Positions 15,934 to 23,065 of a DNA stretch of 64,000 nt are shown one piece after another (position 1 is the first letter of the stretch; every line of letters starts with the position of its first letter). The notes beneath the pieces are model-generated. The model made no database searches, was not told where the DNA came from, and saw only the letters and a list, made by a program, of their open reading frames with translations. The position numbers and the translations under genes are program-made. The stretch is from the NCBI GenBank assembly GCA_017445405.1, contig JAFSUD010000065.1, positions 28,404-92,403 of the forward strand, in the 5' to 3' direction. Source of the DNA: Synergistaceae bacterium. Lineage in GTDB: Bacteria; Synergistota; Synergistia; Synergistales; Aminobacteriaceae.

Positions 15934-17885
15934 GGATAGTCTCGGACAAAGAGACGGAGCAGGACAAGAAGGTAAAGAAGGCGGTGCTTGCGGACATCCA
16001 GAGAGCTAATGACTTTTTCACATCAAAGATAGAACCAGTGCTACGAGTTAGACACAAGATATATGAGGCAGACCGAGAGTACTACAAACAGCGTTTCAGG
16101 AACACGGCGGCGCAGAGCGACTTTGTGAGCTTTGACTTCTGGAGCATGGTGCAATGGGCAATTCCGAACGTGATGAACTCATTTTTCGGGAGTGATGACG
16201 CAGTAGTTATCGTAGGGCGCAGTGAAGAGGACGTGCCGCGCGCGGAGGTTCTGAAGTCGTTAATTAACTTCCAGCTGATGACGCAGAACAAGGGCTTCTT
16301 GGTGCTGTGGGACTGGTTCAGCGACGCATTCGAGTACAATCTCGGAGCAGTAAAAATTTGGTGGGAGAGAGTAGAGGACTGGCAGGACGAGCACCTGGAG
16401 TACGTAGACGCAATGACGCTGTTGCAGATGCAGATGAATGAATGGTGTCAGATAGAGTACGCGCTCGGGCCAGACTTGCTAGGAAACTATCAGATAGGCT
16501 ACCGAATAGGACGGCTGAAGAGCAACAAGCCTGTGATAGAGCCAGTGAGGGTAACAGACCTGCGCTGGTCTCCAGAGGCCAAGAGCCTGAAGGACGCGAA
16601 CTTTGTAGCACACCGACAGGCAGTAACAGCCGACCACCTTCGCAGACAGGCACAGCGCGAGGTGTATGACCCTGAAGCAGTAGAGAAGGCCATAGAGAAA
16701 GCAGGCAACGGAGGGATAATCTATAACTCCTTCGAGACAGAGCTGAACGACGAGCTGAATACGCGCCCCAATGAGGAAGATGATGCGCGCTCGCTGTATG
16801 AGCTGTATGAATGCTATGTGAAGGTAGACATCAATGGCGACGGAATGCTTGAAGACGCGATAGTCTCAGTGGTTGGGGACGAAATCCTGAGAGTGATGGA
16901 GAACCCGTACAACCGAGTACCGATATTCACGCTCTCGCCAGTGCGCGACCCGTTCAAGGTGCTTGCTGATGTATCTCTAGCGGAGATAGTAGGCGAAGTG
17001 CAGACAATCAAGACCGCGCTGATGCGCCAGCTGTTGGTGAACACGGTGAACATAAACAATCAGCGATGGTTCATCGACGGTAAGGGAGTAGACGTGAAGG
17101 ACATCCAGCAGGGTCGCCAGTTCATCAAGGTGAGCGGCAACCCGAGCGCGATAGTGTATCCGTTCCCCCAGCAGGGGATAGCCCCCTGGACTATGAACCT
17201 GTTTGAGTACCTCGAAGGAGCACTAGAGGAATGGACAGGACGTAGCCGATACAACCAGGGCTTGAGTAGCAAGACGCTGAACAAGACGGCGACGGGAATA
17301 TCGCTTCTCCAGCAGGCAAGTGAACAGCGAATAGACTACATAGTGAGGGTGTTCGCGGAGACGGGAGTTGGAGAGGTACTGCGTTTCTTGGTGGAGCTGA
17401 ACCAGAGGTATATAGACCAGCCGCAGGTGATACGACTGCAGAACACGATGCTAGAGGTAAGTCCCGATGACTTGAAAGGCGAGTTCGACATAGATGTGAA
17501 CACTGAGGCCGGAATAGGGAAGAGGAAGCAGACGATAGAGAACCTGCAGGTGTATCTTGCCAGCTTGGCGCAGACAGGTATCCAACTTGGAGCAATAACG
17601 CCCGCTGAATGGGCAATAGCGGCACGTAAGCTACTGCAGGAGAGCGGTATCCGAGATGCAAGCCAGTACGTGAAAGACCCCGAGCAGGTGAAGCAGGAGT
17701 TCTATACGGCGATGATGCAGCAGATGCAAGCTCAACAGGCACAGGAACAGGCAGCGCAAGAACAGGCGGCACTAGAAGGACTGCAGAACGCGGCGAAACA
17801 GCAGGCAGTGCTAGGGAAGTTGCAGGCAGCGGCTCAGCAGGGAGGCGGGTATGTTGCGCCGAACTTAGGAGGGCTGCAGTTATGA
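15906..17885 (+). CDS. Portal protein (659 aa)
   Basis: Position immediately after TerL with an overlapping start. Size and Q/A-rich C-terminal tail (QQMQAQQAQEQAAQEQAA) are typical of portal proteins. Confidence 0.8.
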   Translation: MESDSWDDVRIVSDKETEQDKKVKKAVLADIQRANDFFTSKIEPVLRVRHKIYEADREYYKQRFRNTAAQSDFVSFDFWSMVQWAIPNVMNSFFGSDDAVVIVGRSEEDVPRAEVLKSLINFQLMTQNKGFLVLWDWFSDAFEYNLGAVKIWWERVEDWQDEHLEYVDAMTLLQMQMNEWCQIEYALGPDLLGNYQIGYRIGRLKSNKPVIEPVRVTDLRWSPEAKSLKDANFVAHRQAVTADHLRRQAQREVYDPEAVEKAIEKAGNGGIIYNSFETELNDELNTRPNEEDDARSLYELYECYVKVDINGDGMLEDAIVSVVGDEILRVMENPYNRVPIFTLSPVRDPFKVLADVSLAEIVGEVQTIKTALMRQLLVNTVNINNQRWFIDGKGVDVKDIQQGRQFIKVSGNPSAIVYPFPQQGIAPWTMNLFEYLEGALEEWTGRSRYNQGLSSKTLNKTATGISLLQQASEQRIDYIVRVFAETGVGEVLRFLVELNQRYIDQPQVIRLQNTMLEVSPDDLKGEFDIDVNTEAGIGKRKQTIENLQVYLASLAQTGIQLGAITPAEWAIAARKLLQESGIRDASQYVKDPEQVKQEFYTAMMQQMQAQQAQEQAAQEQAALEGLQNAAKQQAVLGKLQAAAQQGGGYVAPNLGGLQL

Positions 17886-18106
17886 CAGATGTACTTCATG
17901 TGATAGCGGATGTACTGTTGCTGGTAATAGTAGTGTGGTACGACCGGCGAATAGAACAGCTAGAGGCTGATAGCGAGGAATATGAAGCCCATCTAAGGAC
18001 GTTAAGGCGGAGGCTGGACAGTCTTGCGGAACGAACGCCGCCTGTAGCTGGAGGAACGTCGGGCTGGCATGAATTGTGGTGTGCAGAGCCGACATGCGAG
18101 GCTTGA
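17882..18106 (+). CDS. Small N-terminally TM-anchored coiled-coil protein (74 aa)
   Basis: ATGA overlap with the portal stop. VIADVLLLVIVVWY hydrophobic helix, then a charged helix. Confidence 0.5.
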   Translation: MTDVLHVIADVLLLVIVVWYDRRIEQLEADSEEYEAHLRTLRRRLDSLAERTPPVAGGTSGWHELWCAEPTCEA

Positions 18107-18202
18107 TTAACAAGAGCGGGTAGTCTTAATTCAAAAATCGGCGAAAATTGAACTAAGACGAGCAAAAATACTCTCCATATTGCAATTTCAGGTAGATACC
18201 GA

Positions 18203-18230
18203 TTACAACATCATGGACTAAAGGTATACT
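18203..18230 (+). promoter_or_regulatory. Sigma70-like promoter of the Panacea moron
   Basis: TTACAA (18203-18208)-N16-TATACT (18225-18230), 25 nt upstream of the first Panacea gene. A 12-bp inverted repeat (18123-18134 / 18148-18159) lies just upstream. Confidence 0.35.
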
Positions 18231-18254
18231 TCAAAGAGAAAGGATGTGTGTAGT

Positions 18255-18689
18255 ATGCTGAGTATCTTTGATGTAGCCGCATATATTCTCGAACGTTGCG
18301 GGGCAATGTCAGCAATGAAGCTCCAAAAGTTGTGTTATTACTCTCAGGCATGGAGCTTGGTGTGGGATGATGAACCGCTGTTCCCCGAACCGATAGAAGC
18401 GTGGGTCAATGGACCTGTTATCCCAGTTCTTTACAGTAAGCATAAGGGTATCTTTAAGATTGAAGTCGGAGCAGTTGGAGGAAATCCCGATGCTTTAAGC
18501 GACCGCCAGAGAGAAACTGTTAATGCGGTATGCGATGCATATTCCCGCATGAATGCGCAGGAGTTAAGCGACCTTACGCACTCCGAGCAGCCATACATAA
18601 GAGCAAGGAGAGGGCTGGAACCTTTTGAGAGAGGGCATGAGGTTATCTCTTTGGCGGATATGTCAGAATACTATTCCAGTATCCAGTAA
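18255..18689 (+). CDS. Panacea/SocA (DUF4065) domain protein, copy 1
   Basis: FDVAAYILERCGAMSAMKLQKLCYYSQAWSLVWDDEPLFPEPIEAWVNGPV is the canonical DUF4065 N-terminal pattern. Confidence 0.85.
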   Translation: MLSIFDVAAYILERCGAMSAMKLQKLCYYSQAWSLVWDDEPLFPEPIEAWVNGPVIPVLYSKHKGIFKIEVGAVGGNPDALSDRQRETVNAVCDAYSRMNAQELSDLTHSEQPYIRARRGLEPFERGHEVISLADMSEYYSSIQ

Positions 18690-18799
18690 TGGGACGGGAC
18701 AAGGATATATGATTAAGGAATAATCATCGTAGTGAACGCTCAGTACGTAAGAGCGAAGTTGATTATTCTTCTCTCCCCGTATGCTGGCAGTTTTCCTTA

Positions 18800-19120
18800 A
18801 TGGATATGTCTGGTCCTTTTTCTTGTGCAGATATTACGCTCGACGAGTGGCGGCTTATCCTAGACAAGATGCGGCTGTGGGAGAAAATGACATGGCATGA
18901 AATAGCAGGCAGACGAGACCACGCTATCGAGGTTGATAATATCAGCCCTGAAGCGAAGAAAAGGTTAATCGAGCTTCAGCTTGATGATATTGACGAAGTG
19001 TTTTCTCTTCATATAGATGGCATTAAACGTTTGTTTGGCATAAGGGATAGACACATCTTCAAAGTGCTTTGGTGGGACAGAGAGCATAAAGTCTGCCCAT
19101 CGTATCTGAAGCATACGTGA
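18800..19120 (+). CDS. Unknown 106-aa protein between the two Panacea genes (candidate toxin/effector)
   Basis: ORF track. No domain recognised. C-terminal RLFGIRDRHIFKVLWWDREHKVCPS. No clear RBS at 18800, and an alternative start at 18887 (GGGAGAAA-ATG) is possible. Ends 14 nt before Panacea copy 2. Confidence 0.6.
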   Translation: MDMSGPFSCADITLDEWRLILDKMRLWEKMTWHEIAGRRDHAIEVDNISPEAKKRLIELQLDDIDEVFSLHIDGIKRLFGIRDRHIFKVLWWDREHKVCPSYLKHT

Positions 19121-19134
19121 GGACGGTGAATAGT

Positions 19135-19572
19135 ATGGCGACAGTATTCGACGTAGCGAAATATATTCTGAAACGTCAAGGAAGTATGTCATCATGGAAG
19201 TTGCAAAAGCTCTGTTACTATTCACAGGCATGGGCTTTGGCATGGACTGAACATGAGCTATTCCCAGAGGACTTCGAGGCATGGAGCAACGGGCCTGTTT
19301 GTTCTGTACTTTTCAGAGAGCACAAGGGGCTGTTTATGGTTAATGCCTCAGACATCACCAAAGGCACGCCAGAAAATCTTACCCACGATGAGCAAGATAC
19401 TGTAGACGTAGTATTGCGGGACTATGGCGGCATGTCTCCCTATGAGCTGCGCGAGCTTTCTCACAGTGAAGCTCCATACATAGAAGCCAGACATGGTTTG
19501 CCCGACGGAGCACGGTGCAGTTCAGTAATCTCGAAGGCATCAATGGGAGCTTTTTACCGAAGGAGGCCGTAA
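19135..19572 (+). CDS. Panacea/SocA (DUF4065) domain protein, copy 2, C-terminus replaced by IS insertion
   Basis: FDVAKYILKRQGSMSSWKLQKLCYYSQAWALAWTEHELFPEDFEAWSNGPV. After codon Tyr (19555-19557) the frame enters the IS left end and stops after RRRP. Confidence 0.8.
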   Translation: MATVFDVAKYILKRQGSMSSWKLQKLCYYSQAWALAWTEHELFPEDFEAWSNGPVCSVLFREHKGLFMVNASDITKGTPENLTHDEQDTVDVVLRDYGGMSPYELRELSHSEAPYIEARHGLPDGARCSSVISKASMGAFYRRRP

Positions 19573-19659
19573 AGCCCCTAGCTTCAGCTATGGGGATATA
19601 AGGCCTTTATCTTTTAATATTGCTTTGTATTATTTATACTATTCTTATATAATACATGC

Positions 19660-20064
19660 ATGCAATATAAATCTAATCGTAATATCGTTTATTCCTGCAA
19701 ATATCATGTCGTTTGGTGTCCTAAGTATCGCCGTAAAGTCCTCGTCGAGGCAGTTGAGACTAGGCTTAGAGAACTCATTATCTCCATGTGTCGTGAGTCC
19801 TCCGTTGAACTACTTAAACTTGAGATTATGCCTGACCATGTTCACTTGCTCGTTGATGTTGACCCCCAGCTTGGTATCCATACTTTGATAAAGAAGCTCA
19901 AAGGCAGGACATCAAGGCTGCTCAGGCAGGAGTTCCCATACCTTAAAACAAAGTTGCCTACGTTATGGACGAACAGCTACTTTGTCTCAACCGTAGGCGG
20001 AGCACCGCTAAAGATAGTGAAGCAGTACATAGAAAGCCAAAAGACAAGTCAACGGCAGAAATGA
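19660..20064 (+). CDS. tnpA: IS200/IS605 Y1 (HUH) transposase TnpA
   Basis: YHVVWCPKYRRKVL, HUH motif DHVHLLV, and catalytic Tyr context WTNSYFVSTVG. Confidence 0.92.
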   Translation: MQYKSNRNIVYSCKYHVVWCPKYRRKVLVEAVETRLRELIISMCRESSVELLKLEIMPDHVHLLVDVDPQLGIHTLIKKLKGRTSRLLRQEFPYLKTKLPTLWTNSYFVSTVGGAPLKIVKQYIESQKTSQRQK

Positions 20065-21221
20065 AAACGTTTCGCTTCAAGCTATATCACTCTGACCATA
20101 ACAGTGCATTGATGAGACAGATTAACATCGCTGGCCTCATATATAACCATTGCATAGCCCTGCAAAAGAGATACTACCGGCTGTTCGGCAAGTACATCAA
20201 ACCCTATGCTCTGATGAAGCACCTGACGAAGCTGAAGCGCACAAAACGTTTTGCGTATATGCGCCAGCTTGGGTCGCAGGCAGTGCAGGATGTGGCAGAG
20301 AGAATAGACCGTGCCTATAACCTGTTCTGGTCGAACCTGAAACGCAAGGTTAAGTGCTCGCCGCCAAAGTTCAAGGCTGTCCGCCGCTACAAATCGTTCA
20401 CGCTGAAGCAAGCGGGCTGGTCTCTTGATGAGGCTTGTGGACGTATTCGCTTGGGCAAAAGGTGGTACGGATACTTTCAGAGCCGTCGTATAGAGGGCAA
20501 AGTCAAAACGGTAACGGTGAAGCGTGATGCAGTAGGAAATATATACGTCTATCTGTGCTGTGATACTCAGTCTGTGCCGGTCGAGACACGAACGGGTAAG
20601 AGCGTCGGTTTCGACTTCGGGCTGAAACAGTTTCTCACAGCGAGTGATGGACAAGATATAACTTCACCCGATTTCTTCAAGCAGAACGTAAGAACAATAA
20701 GAACCAAATGCCGCGCACTCTCCCGCAAACAGAAAGGATCTCATAGCCGAGAACGTGCCCGCCTTGAACTGGCTCGTGCCTACCGCAGAATGGAGAACCA
20801 GCGCAAAGATTTTCACTTCAAGCTGGCCCGGAAACTCTGTGAGGAGTATGCGTGTATCTGCCTAGAGACGCTGAACATCAAGGGGATGGCGCGTTTGTTG
20901 GGACAAAAGATACACTCTCTAGGCTTCTCGGAGTTCGTGAAGATTCTTGAGTACGAGGCATCAAAGTTCGGGACGCAGATAGTCTTTGTGCCGCCGTTCT
21001 TCCCGTCCTCTCAGCTGTGCAGTGCCTGCGGGTATCAGAATCCTGATGTGAAGAATCTCAAAGTTCGTGAGTGGACTTGTCCGCAGTGCCATACGCACCA
21101 CGAACGGGACAGGAACGCGGCCAAGAATATATTGATGGCAGGGGCATCAGCCATTAGCGGAGACGCAGTAAGCCCGGAGCAATCCGGCAGTGTTGTAGAT
21201 GCTAGAAGCCCCCGCCTTTAG
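20061..21221 (+). CDS. tnpB: TnpB RNA-guided endonuclease (OrfB_IS605 + zinc ribbon)
   Basis: ATGA overlap with tnpA. RuvC triad contexts VGFDFG, ICLETLN and ERDRNAAKNI. Zinc ribbon CSACG...CPQC. Confidence 0.92.
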   Translation: MKTFRFKLYHSDHNSALMRQINIAGLIYNHCIALQKRYYRLFGKYIKPYALMKHLTKLKRTKRFAYMRQLGSQAVQDVAERIDRAYNLFWSNLKRKVKCSPPKFKAVRRYKSFTLKQAGWSLDEACGRIRLGKRWYGYFQSRRIEGKVKTVTVKRDAVGNIYVYLCCDTQSVPVETRTGKSVGFDFGLKQFLTASDGQDITSPDFFKQNVRTIRTKCRALSRKQKGSHSRERARLELARAYRRMENQRKDFHFKLARKLCEEYACICLETLNIKGMARLLGQKIHSLGFSEFVKILEYEASKFGTQIVFVPPFFPSSQLCSACGYQNPDVKNLKVREWTCPQCHTHHERDRNAAKNILMAGASAISGDAVSPEQSGSVVDARSPRL

Positions 21222-21239
21222 GCGTGGGGAGTATGTCAA

Positions 21240-21332
21240 TGGGACAGCATAGCCGAACCAGTAAGCATAGAGGAGCTAGAACGGGTACTAGAAGAGCTAG
21301 ATGCAGATATACCCGACATAGAACAAAGATAG
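21240..21332 (+). pseudogene. Displaced 3' end (30 codons) of Panacea copy 2
   Basis: Joining 19557 to 21240 keeps the frame: ...MGAFY|WDSIAEPVSIEELERVLEELDADIPDIEQR*. Confidence 0.65.
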
Positions 21333-21356
21333 CACTCCAGCAATGGGGTGCTTTTT
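21332..21356 (+). terminator. Rho-independent terminator closing the moron
   Basis: GCACTCC (21332-21338) pairs with GGGGTGC (21345-21351), followed by TTTTT. Confidence 0.6.
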
Positions 21357-21373
21357 CATGCACAGGAGGCAGA

Positions 21374-21454
21374 ATGGGAATAGCGGTACGTATCCCCGCA
21401 CTGGGGCGCGTAATAGAGTGGCTTCGCAAGAAGCTGAGGGAATTAGGTTACTAG
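21374..21454 (+). CDS. Possible 26-aa peptide MGIAVRIPALGRVIEWLRKKLRELGY
   Basis: AGGAGG 5 nt upstream of ATG 21374. It is the only plausible part of the 21224-21454 track ORF. Confidence 0.3.
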   Translation: MGIAVRIPALGRVIEWLRKKLRELGY

Positions 21455-21469
21455 AGAGGAGAGGTAGCT

Positions 21470-21769
21470 ATGGACACGAGAGAACTGAGGACGCTTGAAT
21501 ACAGTCCCGAACGTGAGCGCGAAGAACTAATGGCGCAGGCGGAGCAGGGACGGCGGTACAGGGTAGCGAACGATGTGCTCGACGAGATATTCGTCGCTCA
21601 GAGAGAACACGTAATCCGCCAGCTGGAGAGTGCCGACCTGCACTCGGACAATGACGCAATAGGGCTGGTGCAGTATCTTCGGGTACTGAAGATATTTGTA
21701 GACACGATAAGAAGCCGGATAGACAGCGGAGAAATCGCAGAAAAGGAGTTGATTAATGATGGCGACTAA
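21470..21769 (+). CDS. Hypothetical head-module protein (99 aa)
   Basis: ORF track. GAGAGGAGAGG RBS. Confidence 0.7.
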   Translation: MDTRELRTLEYSPEREREELMAQAEQGRRYRVANDVLDEIFVAQREHVIRQLESADLHSDNDAIGLVQYLRVLKIFVDTIRSRIDSGEIAEKELINDGD

Positions 21770-21956
21770 GAAGGCAATCGAGCTTGATGCAAGGTTGGAA
21801 GCAATAATCCGTGAAGAATACGCTGAGTTCAAAACATATCTTCCAATGCCGCAGGAGAAGGCAATGTATGACCGTAAGCAGAATGAGTACTGGGACAGGA
21901 TACATGCGCGCGTAAAGGAAGGAGAGCTTATCGATGGACGAACAGCAGACGAGTAG
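21756..21956 (+). CDS. Hypothetical protein (66 aa)
   Basis: ORF track. Overlapping start and stop with both neighbours. Confidence 0.6.
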   Translation: MMATKKAIELDARLEAIIREEYAEFKTYLPMPQEKAMYDRKQNEYWDRIHARVKEGELIDGRTADE

Positions 21957-22884
21957 CTGGTCAGTGGAGGCGGACGGCCTTGTATACAGTGAGGGAGAAG
22001 CGAGCGTAGCCGAAAGTTACGCCCCCGAACCCGAATCCGAGCCCGCCCCAATAACGAGCGACAACGGTAATGTAAGCCTGAACGAGGACGGAGAAGTAGA
22101 GTTCCGTGATGAGTTCTTCGGAGACTTGGGACTAGATGAGCCCGAACGTCCCGCAAGGTACACAGAGCAGGAGCTTAGGCAGACCCCGTACGAGCAGTGG
22201 GACGAAAGCCGTCTGGAAGGCGACGTTAAGGACTACATCCCGATAGTGAGGGAGCAGATGCAGCGTCGCCAGATAGAGGAGCAGATGGCGCAGCGTTCGC
22301 AGACCCCGCCGATGTTCACCGCCCCCCAGCAGTACACTCCGAAAGAACTCGCCGACGACGCACAGAAGCTCGCCTGTGAAAGGTTAGGGCTTGAAGACCC
22401 AGACGACTTTGACGAATACGAGAGCGAGCACCGAGCGGCACTGAGCTTGGCGATGCAGGAGCTCTCAAACCGCCGCACAGCTGAAATAGCGCAGTATCAG
22501 AGGATGTCGAACGACTACCAGCAGCTGCAGAACTTCAACGCCCAGTTAGTAAGGCAGCCAGACTACATGGAGTTTGACCGCTGGTTCACGGGCAAGCTGC
22601 AGGAAGCTAAGGTAACCCCTGCACAGGTGAACGCCGGACTGATGGAGTACGCGAGGCAGAGCGGAGGAGACTTCCGCAGTATTCAGGGAGTGCTGTCGAA
22701 TTGGTATCAGGAGTTCCGTGCAGAGCAGGGCAGAAACCGTCCTGCACCGCGCAACCGTCCTCCTGTACTTGAGGGAGCTGGAGGAACGTCGTACGAAGGC
22801 CGCCGTAGTGTGGACATGAGGAAGTTCAGCAGCATGGACATGGACGGACAGGCAGAGGCATTGATGAGGATGGGCTACGCGTGA
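21934..22884 (+). CDS. Scaffolding-protein candidate (316 aa)
   Basis: Acidic, helix-rich, low-complexity protein lying upstream of the major capsid gene. Called by position and composition only. Confidence 0.55.
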   Translation: MDEQQTSSWSVEADGLVYSEGEASVAESYAPEPESEPAPITSDNGNVSLNEDGEVEFRDEFFGDLGLDEPERPARYTEQELRQTPYEQWDESRLEGDVKDYIPIVREQMQRRQIEEQMAQRSQTPPMFTAPQQYTPKELADDAQKLACERLGLEDPDDFDEYESEHRAALSLAMQELSNRRTAEIAQYQRMSNDYQQLQNFNAQLVRQPDYMEFDRWFTGKLQEAKVTPAQVNAGLMEYARQSGGDFRSIQGVLSNWYQEFRAEQGRNRPAPRNRPPVLEGAGGTSYEGRRSVDMRKFSSMDMDGQAEALMRMGYA

Positions 22885-22894
22885 GGTGATAGCA

Positions 22895-23065
22895 ATGGAT
22901 GAGGAACTGAAACCCTGCCCGTTCTGCGGCAGTATCCCCGAAGTCTGTGAAGCGGAGAATGACGGTGAACTACTGAAGATGGTAGCGTGCCTCAATTGCG
23001 GAGTATCGACGTTTGCCAGCGAGGACGAAGCCAAAGTGATAGAAGCATGGAACAGACGGGTGTAG
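22895..23065 (+). CDS. Lar-family restriction-alleviation protein (56 aa)
   Basis: Below the ORF-track cutoff. KPCPFCGS...ACLNCG...EDEAKVIEAWNRR matches the Lar pattern (CPFCG, CxxC, A..WN.R). Confidence 0.7.
   Translation: MDEELKPCPFCGSIPEVCEAENDGELLKMVACLNCGVSTFASEDEAKVIEAWNRRV

Follow-up and report, generated by a model that had tools for sequence, protein, structure and literature searches.

A 64,000-nucleotide stretch of contig JAFSUD010000065.1 (hereafter the window) includes the structural region of a tailed phage, and within it the second of two Panacea (PanA) genes is interrupted by an insertion sequence of the IS200/IS605 family. Judged by its sequence, this is a complete single element of the IS608 type, 1682 bp long, with intact tnpA and tnpB genes and ends at 19558 and 21239 (coordinates are window positions, and all features lie on the forward strand). 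It represents an ordinary insertion of the IS608 type into an accessory gene of a phage. Its insertion probably removed three codons and the stop codon of that gene, Panacea copy 2, with T21240 standing as an extra base between the right end of the element and the original target. The lost codons and stop would persist just beyond this base as GGG ACA GCA TAG (21241–21252), which reads G-T-A-stop and is the probable native end of a 144-residue protein, and the 92 nt that lead from the element to the terminator would never have been a Panacea C-terminus. An earlier reading of the same letters, the sequence-only reading, had placed the insertion at the same point and proposed a loss of the final 30 codons of copy 2, and with them of an acidic C-terminal helix.

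Evidence on the extent of the loss comes from the family itself. We searched with the 171-residue protein restored by joining 19557 to 21240 and obtained 874 homologues; coverage was read from the 120 that were listed and endings from the 119 closest that were aligned. Each of the 120 listed homologues covered only 81–82% of the restored query, which means that these homologues stop where the element starts. Among the 119, 115 end in G-x-L/F exactly three residues past the Tyr, three have 1–10 extra residues and none has a tail of more than 10 residues; G142 and L144 are conserved at 90% or above. The closest uninterrupted gene (P0002, 91% identical in amino acids, from a phage with 86% DNA identity) has TTT TAC GGT AGC CTC TAG at this place. 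Its AlphaFold2 model (pLDDT 95.8) is confident to the end at residue 144, with the last helix at residues 134–142, and in this model the Panacea fold is complete at 144 residues, no further helix being needed. The junction with the element falls within the last turn of this helix, where the present protein continues as FY-RRRP and the family as (F/Y)Y-G-x-L. No Panacea protein has a counterpart of the restored C-terminus, an outcome that the sequence-only reading had itself named as refuting it, and as a statement about Panacea proteins the removal of 30 codons is not supported. Exact look-ups of three hypothetical uninterrupted proteins, those ending in FYGTA and in FYGSL and the 171-residue form, found none in 15 billion sequences.

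The interrupted gene now spans 19135–19572 and encodes 145 residues (58.7 bits to the Pfam family, with P0001 100% identical). Residues 1–141 are native, and RRRP and the stop (19558–19572) are supplied by the left end of the element, as the sequence-only reading had seen when it gave FYRRRP as the present ending. The SocA_Panacea domain scores above its Pfam gathering cut-off (25.7 bits) in both copies, with 67.9 bits in copy 1 and 58.7 bits in copy 2.

Two features of the right flank place the original target one base beyond the right end of the element. The first is the G-T-A-stop itself, which stands exactly where the family ends, a G-x-x-stop having a chance of about 0.004 in a given frame. 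The second is the site of L054, the closest related element (body 83% identical in nucleotides, TnpB 85% identical in amino acids), which lies at a locus unrelated to the window (p = 0.14 and 0.98 for the wider flanks). The empty site of L054, GGAGCTTTAC joined to GGGAGAG, is nearly identical to that of the window, GGAGCTTTTTAC joined to GGGACAG, only when T21240 is omitted: none of 2000 shuffles reached the score without T21240, and with it p was 0.006. Together, the site match and the G-T-A-stop place the original target as TTAC/GGGACAG, the slash marking the junction.

The ends of the element were determined by comparison with 21 related copies, found in Synergistaceae/Fretibacterium and Megasphaera genomes, in metagenome contigs, in Alicyclobacillus phage KKP_3916 and in Helicobacter phage Pt11509_1. 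All 21 share the same end layout, and their end sequences are the same as those of the window or nearly identical to them, conservation being bounded by TTAC or TTAT on one side and TCAA on the other. At the left end, it begins directly 3' of TTAC with the guide AAAG in seven copies and directly 3' of TTAT with the guide AAAA in four; the fourth base of the guide thus covaries with the fourth base of the target in 11 of the 11 copies having a readable left end. This covariation is predicted by the mechanism of IS608, where the cleavage site is recognised through pairing with the four bases that lie 5' of the hairpin foot (PMC3201880, PMC5934647). In the window, TTAC (19554–19557) is flank DNA and the left cleavage site (CL), spanning codons 140–141 (TTT TAC) of copy 2. 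A spacer of 17 nt, CGAAGGAGGCCGTAAAG, separates it from the left subterminal hairpin (IPL, 19575–19595; CCCCTAGC-TTCA-GCTA-T-GGGG, with a bulged T19591). The final four bases of the spacer, AAAG (19571–19574), lie at the foot of the hairpin and form the left guide (GL), the same as in IS608 (PMC5934647). A boundary shifted by one base to the left, with the element starting at C19557 and TTTA as target, would restore FYGTA-stop without an extra base; it was rejected because C19557 behaves like a target base in its covariation with the guide.

At the right end, the subterminal hairpin (IPR, 21209–21229; CCCCCGCC-TTTA-GGCG-T-GGGG, with a bulged T21225) shows a compensatory change, C-G to T-A or the reverse, at stem pair 5 among the copies. 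It is followed by AGTATGTCAA, which ends at 21239, and the last 4 nt of the element, TCAA (21236–21239), are the right cleavage site (CR), 10 nt 3' of the hairpin. Most copies close with GGGGAGTATGTCAA, and single-base variants read GGGAG (L012–L014), AGAATG (L001) and GCCAA (L006). Past TCAA the copies differ at once, the next base being a, g, c or t, and the element therefore ends at 21239; T21240 was considered as part of the conserved right end and rejected for the same reason. The length would be 1683 bp if T21240 moved with the element. The right guide (GR, 21205–21208) is GAAG, as against GAAT in IS608 (PMC5934647) and in 21 of the 21 related copies.

Both hairpins are the minimum-free-energy folds of their single-stranded DNA (−11.4 kcal/mol on the left and −8.7 kcal/mol on the right, z about −2.3 each), and such subterminal imperfect hairpins stand at both ends in place of terminal inverted repeats. 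The 21-nt left hairpin is unique in the window (0.00 occurrences expected), as are the 15 nt of the right end (0.11 expected), so that these features lie well outside chance, and the window holds one copy of the element. The target is not duplicated, the flanks being TTAC and TGGG, and no second TTAC plus guide site was found in the window besides the predicted target. The sequence-only reading had located TTAC, TCAA and both bulged-T hairpins correctly, and its insertion point 3' of TTAC with an end at TCAA is confirmed by the related copies. The geometry of IS608 that it had invoked agrees in target, right cleavage site, hairpins and the 10 nt on the right, but the left spacing is 17 nt here and 19 nt in IS608 (PMC3201880). 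The copy in Helicobacter phage Pt11509_1, whose left hairpin differs from that of the window at 1 of 21 nt, has spacings of 19 nt on the left and 10 nt on the right.

Several observations weigh against the loss of three codons. By the rules of IS608 and by the comparison of copies, T21240 is flank DNA, and the strict empty site is TTAC/TGGG. The known steps of this transposition add no base, so that one extra, unexplained event is required. The junction is inferred, an empty site having been found in no collection searched, and the likeness to the L054 site concerns one pair of elements. The remaining difficulty lies in the 30-codon open reading frame that follows T21240 (21240–21331; WDSIAEPV...IEQR-stop). 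Joining 19557 to 21240 gives GAFY followed by WDSIAEPVSIEELERVLEELDADIPDIEQR and a stop, and the 30 codons stay open to TAG 21329–21331, which touches the terminator stem, as the sequence-only reading had observed. By itself, an open frame of this length has a chance expectation of about 0.2. Its codon usage is coding-like: the score in this frame is +7.2 bits, compared with 10.4 ± 5.5 bits for true-frame windows and −6.1 ± 5.2 bits for open wrong-frame windows of the same phage. A score of 7.2 bits is reached by 0.4% of open shuffles and by 1% of open antisense windows (p = 0.004 given an open frame; joint probability 7e-4).

If the tail is taken at face value, copy 2 had 171 residues before the insertion, an acidic 30-residue tail replaced G-x-L, and 30 codons were removed. 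This account needs no additional mutational event, its junction matches the IS608 rules and the copy comparison exactly, its frame stays open until one base short of the terminator, and the codon usage of the tail is coding-like. We nevertheless hold it to be unlikely. No homologue has such a tail and the tail itself has no homologue; the nearly invariant G142 and L144 would be missing from a fold that is complete at 144 residues; and the protein would leave the family consensus at precisely the point of insertion. Coincidence would also have to account for the G-T-A-stop in the neighbouring frame and for the resemblance of the site, in that register, to the site of L054. If three codons were lost instead, the tail would owe its coding-like usage to a lost downstream gene of which it is a remnant, or to chance.

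Against 1.84 billion representative proteins, an exhaustive HMMER search found no homologue of the tail, nor did tblastn against phage records; searches of this kind have low power below about 75% identity for a query of 30 residues. The fetched loci of relatives likewise held no homologue, a word-based search with a 41-residue query containing the tail gave no candidates, and a 50-residue junction peptide was not found in JGI metagenomes. The reading frame used as an anchor downstream (21470–21769) had no relatives in viral or JGI metagenome contigs. The tail lies in the frame of tnpB, six sense codons leading from the tnpB stop (TAG 21219–21221) into it; this shared frame is probably a 1-in-3 coincidence.

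The tail might also have come from elsewhere. Recombination between two copies of the element, in one genome or between two co-infecting phages, could have deleted or exchanged the intervening DNA and so joined a foreign right flank to copy 2, the tail being the 3' end of another gene such as a lost toxin partner. Such an event would account for a coding-like tail without Panacea homology. It also fits the neighbourhood of copy-2-like genes in relatives, which always precede another cassette gene (a phrog_8366 family gene, Fic, or Panacea plus phrog_8366), the shuffled cassette order among related phages and the presence of TnpB elements beside such cassettes elsewhere. A weak match points the same way: GAGGAGCTAGAAC in the tail (21270–21282) matches L002 3344–3356, the ribosome-binding region that directly precedes the start codon of Fic in a related phage, at 12 of 13 nt (p about 0.03), and could be what is left of a downstream gene. 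However, the window has one copy of the element and no contig of the phage has a second, and the tail matches no C-terminus of a partner gene seen in relatives. The G-T-A-stop and the L054 site match would again be coincidences, and agreement of the tail with the frame of copy 2 would be a 1-in-3 accident. We consider recombination of this kind very unlikely, and return to the loss of three codons as the reading that we prefer.

With the junction of the sequence-only reading, an empty site would read GCTTTTTAC joined to TGGGACAGC, or TTTTAC joined to GGGACAGCATAG; with T21240 left out, it would read GCTTTTTAC joined to GGGACAGC. The joints of an excised circle would take two forms, GTATGTCAA or GTATGTCAAT joined to CGAAGGAGG. 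Exact patterns for the empty site and the right flank were absent from viral contigs, as was the pattern for the left end. No empty site was present in JGI metagenomes or in the contigs that break near the element (L041–L051), two of which (L041 and L042) end inside copy 2, before the site; those that reach the site carry the element. The first 19 nt of L051, a public contig of 517 bp, are CACGACGCTCTTCCGATCT; they do not align to the window and are not a variant junction. We take them to be the tail of a sequencing adapter, which they resemble.

The sequence of this region recurs at 99.9–100% identity in at least 14 contigs, drawn from about nine metagenome samples, and every contig of this phage that reaches the insertion site holds the element. 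Samples with this phage include SRR12529067, SRR12529378 and SRR12529069 and the runs behind ERZ28653813 and ERZ28019070. Exact copies of TnpA and TnpB were confined to this phage. TCAA fits IS608 in position and in sequence, and the guide GAAG mismatches the A next to the right cut. Here we presume that the fourth base of the right guide pairs with the A at the scissile bond, extending to the right end the scheme published for the left end (PMC5934647), with the IS608 structures as further background. By this reasoning, the right end should be cut less well and excision should be weaker. That tnpA and tnpB are intact, as the sequence-only reading had noted, is confirmed by Pfam matches and aligned catalytic residues; the recent transposition that it deduced is not supported, as every contig that spans the site has the element and the substitution in the right guide should weaken excision.

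The two genes of the element resemble those of known elements. tnpA (19660–20064) encodes a Y1 HUH transposase of 134 residues (Y1_Tnp PF01797, 151.9 bits), and tnpB (20061–21221), whose start overlaps the tnpA stop (ATGA), encodes an RNA-guided nuclease of 386 residues with the Pfam OrfB_IS605 and TNB domains. The order of the genes is that of IS608 (ISHp608) of Helicobacter pylori. The alignment of TnpA with its ISHp608 counterpart (2a6m; 197 bits, twice the score that it gives to ISDra2 TnpA) covers the full length, and the HxH motif and catalytic Tyr are kept (DHVHLL against DHIHIL, KQYIESQ against KQYIENQ). TnpB aligns with ISDra2 TnpB (8bf8) over 360 residues at 200 bits; D (GFDFG), E (CLETL) and D (ERDRNAA) fall in matching columns and a CxxC...CxxC zinc finger is present. 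We take these columns to be those of RuvC D191, E278 and D361. Further likenesses to IS608 are the guide AAAG with the target TTAC, the right end formed by a hairpin and AGTATGTCAA, and the bulged T in both hairpins (PMC3201880, PMC5934647). The element differs from IS608 in the sequence of the right hairpin stem, where pairing is kept, as well as in the left spacing and the right guide, and in its host, a rumen or gut phage, related elements being found in Synergistaceae genomes.

TnpB is 68–85% identical to its nearest database relatives, and the element is therefore distinct and unnamed. Many relatives carry tnpB alone with the same ends, the left hairpin lying 30–60 nt upstream of tnpB (L008, L009, L010, L015, L027 and L058); these derivatives come from Fretibacterium/Synergistaceae genomes and metagenome contigs. 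One of them, L058, was seen in 10 samples at the same place in the chromosome, flanked by an AIRS-domain gene and aspS.

By analogy with the biochemistry of IS608, TnpA would move the top strand as single-stranded DNA and would locate the cleavage sites by pairing AAAG with TTAC on the left and GAAG with TCAA on the right. A putative omega-RNA scaffold extends from the 3' end of tnpB to the right end (21100–21239, the 5' limit being approximate). Its stems are conserved and show compensatory changes across 12 copies, a likeness to the omega-RNA of ISDra2. An Rfam scan of 17000–23000 at E ≤ 1 returned no family match to this right-end RNA. Following the logic of ISDra2, the transposon-associated motif (TAM) is expected to be the target site and the guide to be the right flank (PMC8612924; bioRxiv 10.1101/2023.03.14.532601). 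The predicted TAM is TTAC here, as against TTGAT in ISDra2, and the predicted guide, or TnpB target adjoining the TAM in an empty site, is 21240–21255; candidate targets are TTAC followed by TGGGACAGCATAGCCG and TTAC followed by GGGACAGCATAGCCGA. TnpB with a guide RNA made of the right end and the adjacent flank from 21240 would cut empty sites with TTAC and this flank, and would thereby favour retention of the element (PMC8612924; bioRxiv 10.1101/2023.03.14.532601).

The phage derives from rumen and gut metagenomes. Its structural region covers about 14–25 kb of the window and comprises a terminase, an SU10-type portal and an SU10-type capsid, and a small accessory cassette is placed between the portal and the next conserved genes. 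Panacea copy 1 (18255–18689; PF13274, 67.9 bits; gene call in L003) encodes 144 residues ending MSEYYSSIQ. It is followed by a gene of the phrog_8366 family (18689–19120), a putative toxin partner recognised by alignment with L034 and a PHROG match. This gene has an in-frame TGA at codon 8 (18710–18712) where the 143-residue gene of L034 has CGA, the alignment being free of indels, and a frame of 106 residues is left that restarts at ATG 18800. The TGA-bearing sequence is identical across all contigs of the window phage. Downstream of the element, the cassette closes with an intrinsic terminator (21331–21352, stem start 21331 or 21332) that is conserved in the related phage L002.

Relatives carry the cassette genes in shuffled orders. 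L002 (2829–5493) has a copy-2-like PanA, Fic, a copy-1-like PanA and a phrog_8366-like gene of 156 residues; L030 (5001–6515) has a PanA and a phrog_8366 family gene of 147 residues; and L034 (275–1617) has two PanA genes and the gene of 143 residues. Among the cassettes compared, copy 2 is the last gene before the terminator in the window alone. Copy-2 relatives stand directly upstream of Fic or of a phrog_8366 family gene, as described for phage PanA-toxin pairs (PMC8832971), whereas copy 2 in the window has neither a downstream partner gene nor the G-x-L end of the family. No cognate toxin gene adjoins it, since the element, 92 nt and the terminator stand 3' of it. The antitoxin role of the copy 2 subfamily, which resembles PanA (Panacea/DUF4065) in sequence, is putative. 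TnpB elements lie close to Panacea cassettes in other contigs (L034/L035 2125–3889; L030/L032 1–394), and an IS607-type pair (serine recombinase and TnpB) lies 500 nt downstream of one such cassette. Panacea accessory regions may be frequent landing sites for TnpB elements.

The two closest elements, at unrelated loci, share a nearly identical 19-nt site, GGAGC-T3-5-AC/GGGA.AG (window 19546–19557 and 21241–21247; L054 57–76 and 1761–1767), which suggests target recognition beyond TTAC. Short starts of the right flank are also common to other related pairs (AGTATT in L006 and L007, CATCA in L010 and L055). The IS608 subgroup to which the element belongs might select a site of about 19 nt, with the T-to-G change in the right guide shifting the right cut by one base and carrying the extra T along. 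We regard this combination as quite unlikely, and its link between the mismatched guide and the extra base, both at the right end, is speculative. If true, target choice at this length would parallel in nature the extended pairing engineered into IS608, or else TnpB and its guide RNA would contribute to it; the shift of the right cut by one base would explain the offset of the Panacea remnant.

For annotation, copy 2 is best described as near full length, with 141 of 144 residues native, its G-x-L end most probably exchanged for RRRP and no 30-residue domain lost; if the antitoxin works differently, the cause would lie in those three residues. To students of transposons, the locus offers a clean case in nature of covariation between guide and target. 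The extra T, the GAAG guide and the nearly identical extended sites are small anomalies that bear on how IS200/IS605 elements choose their targets.

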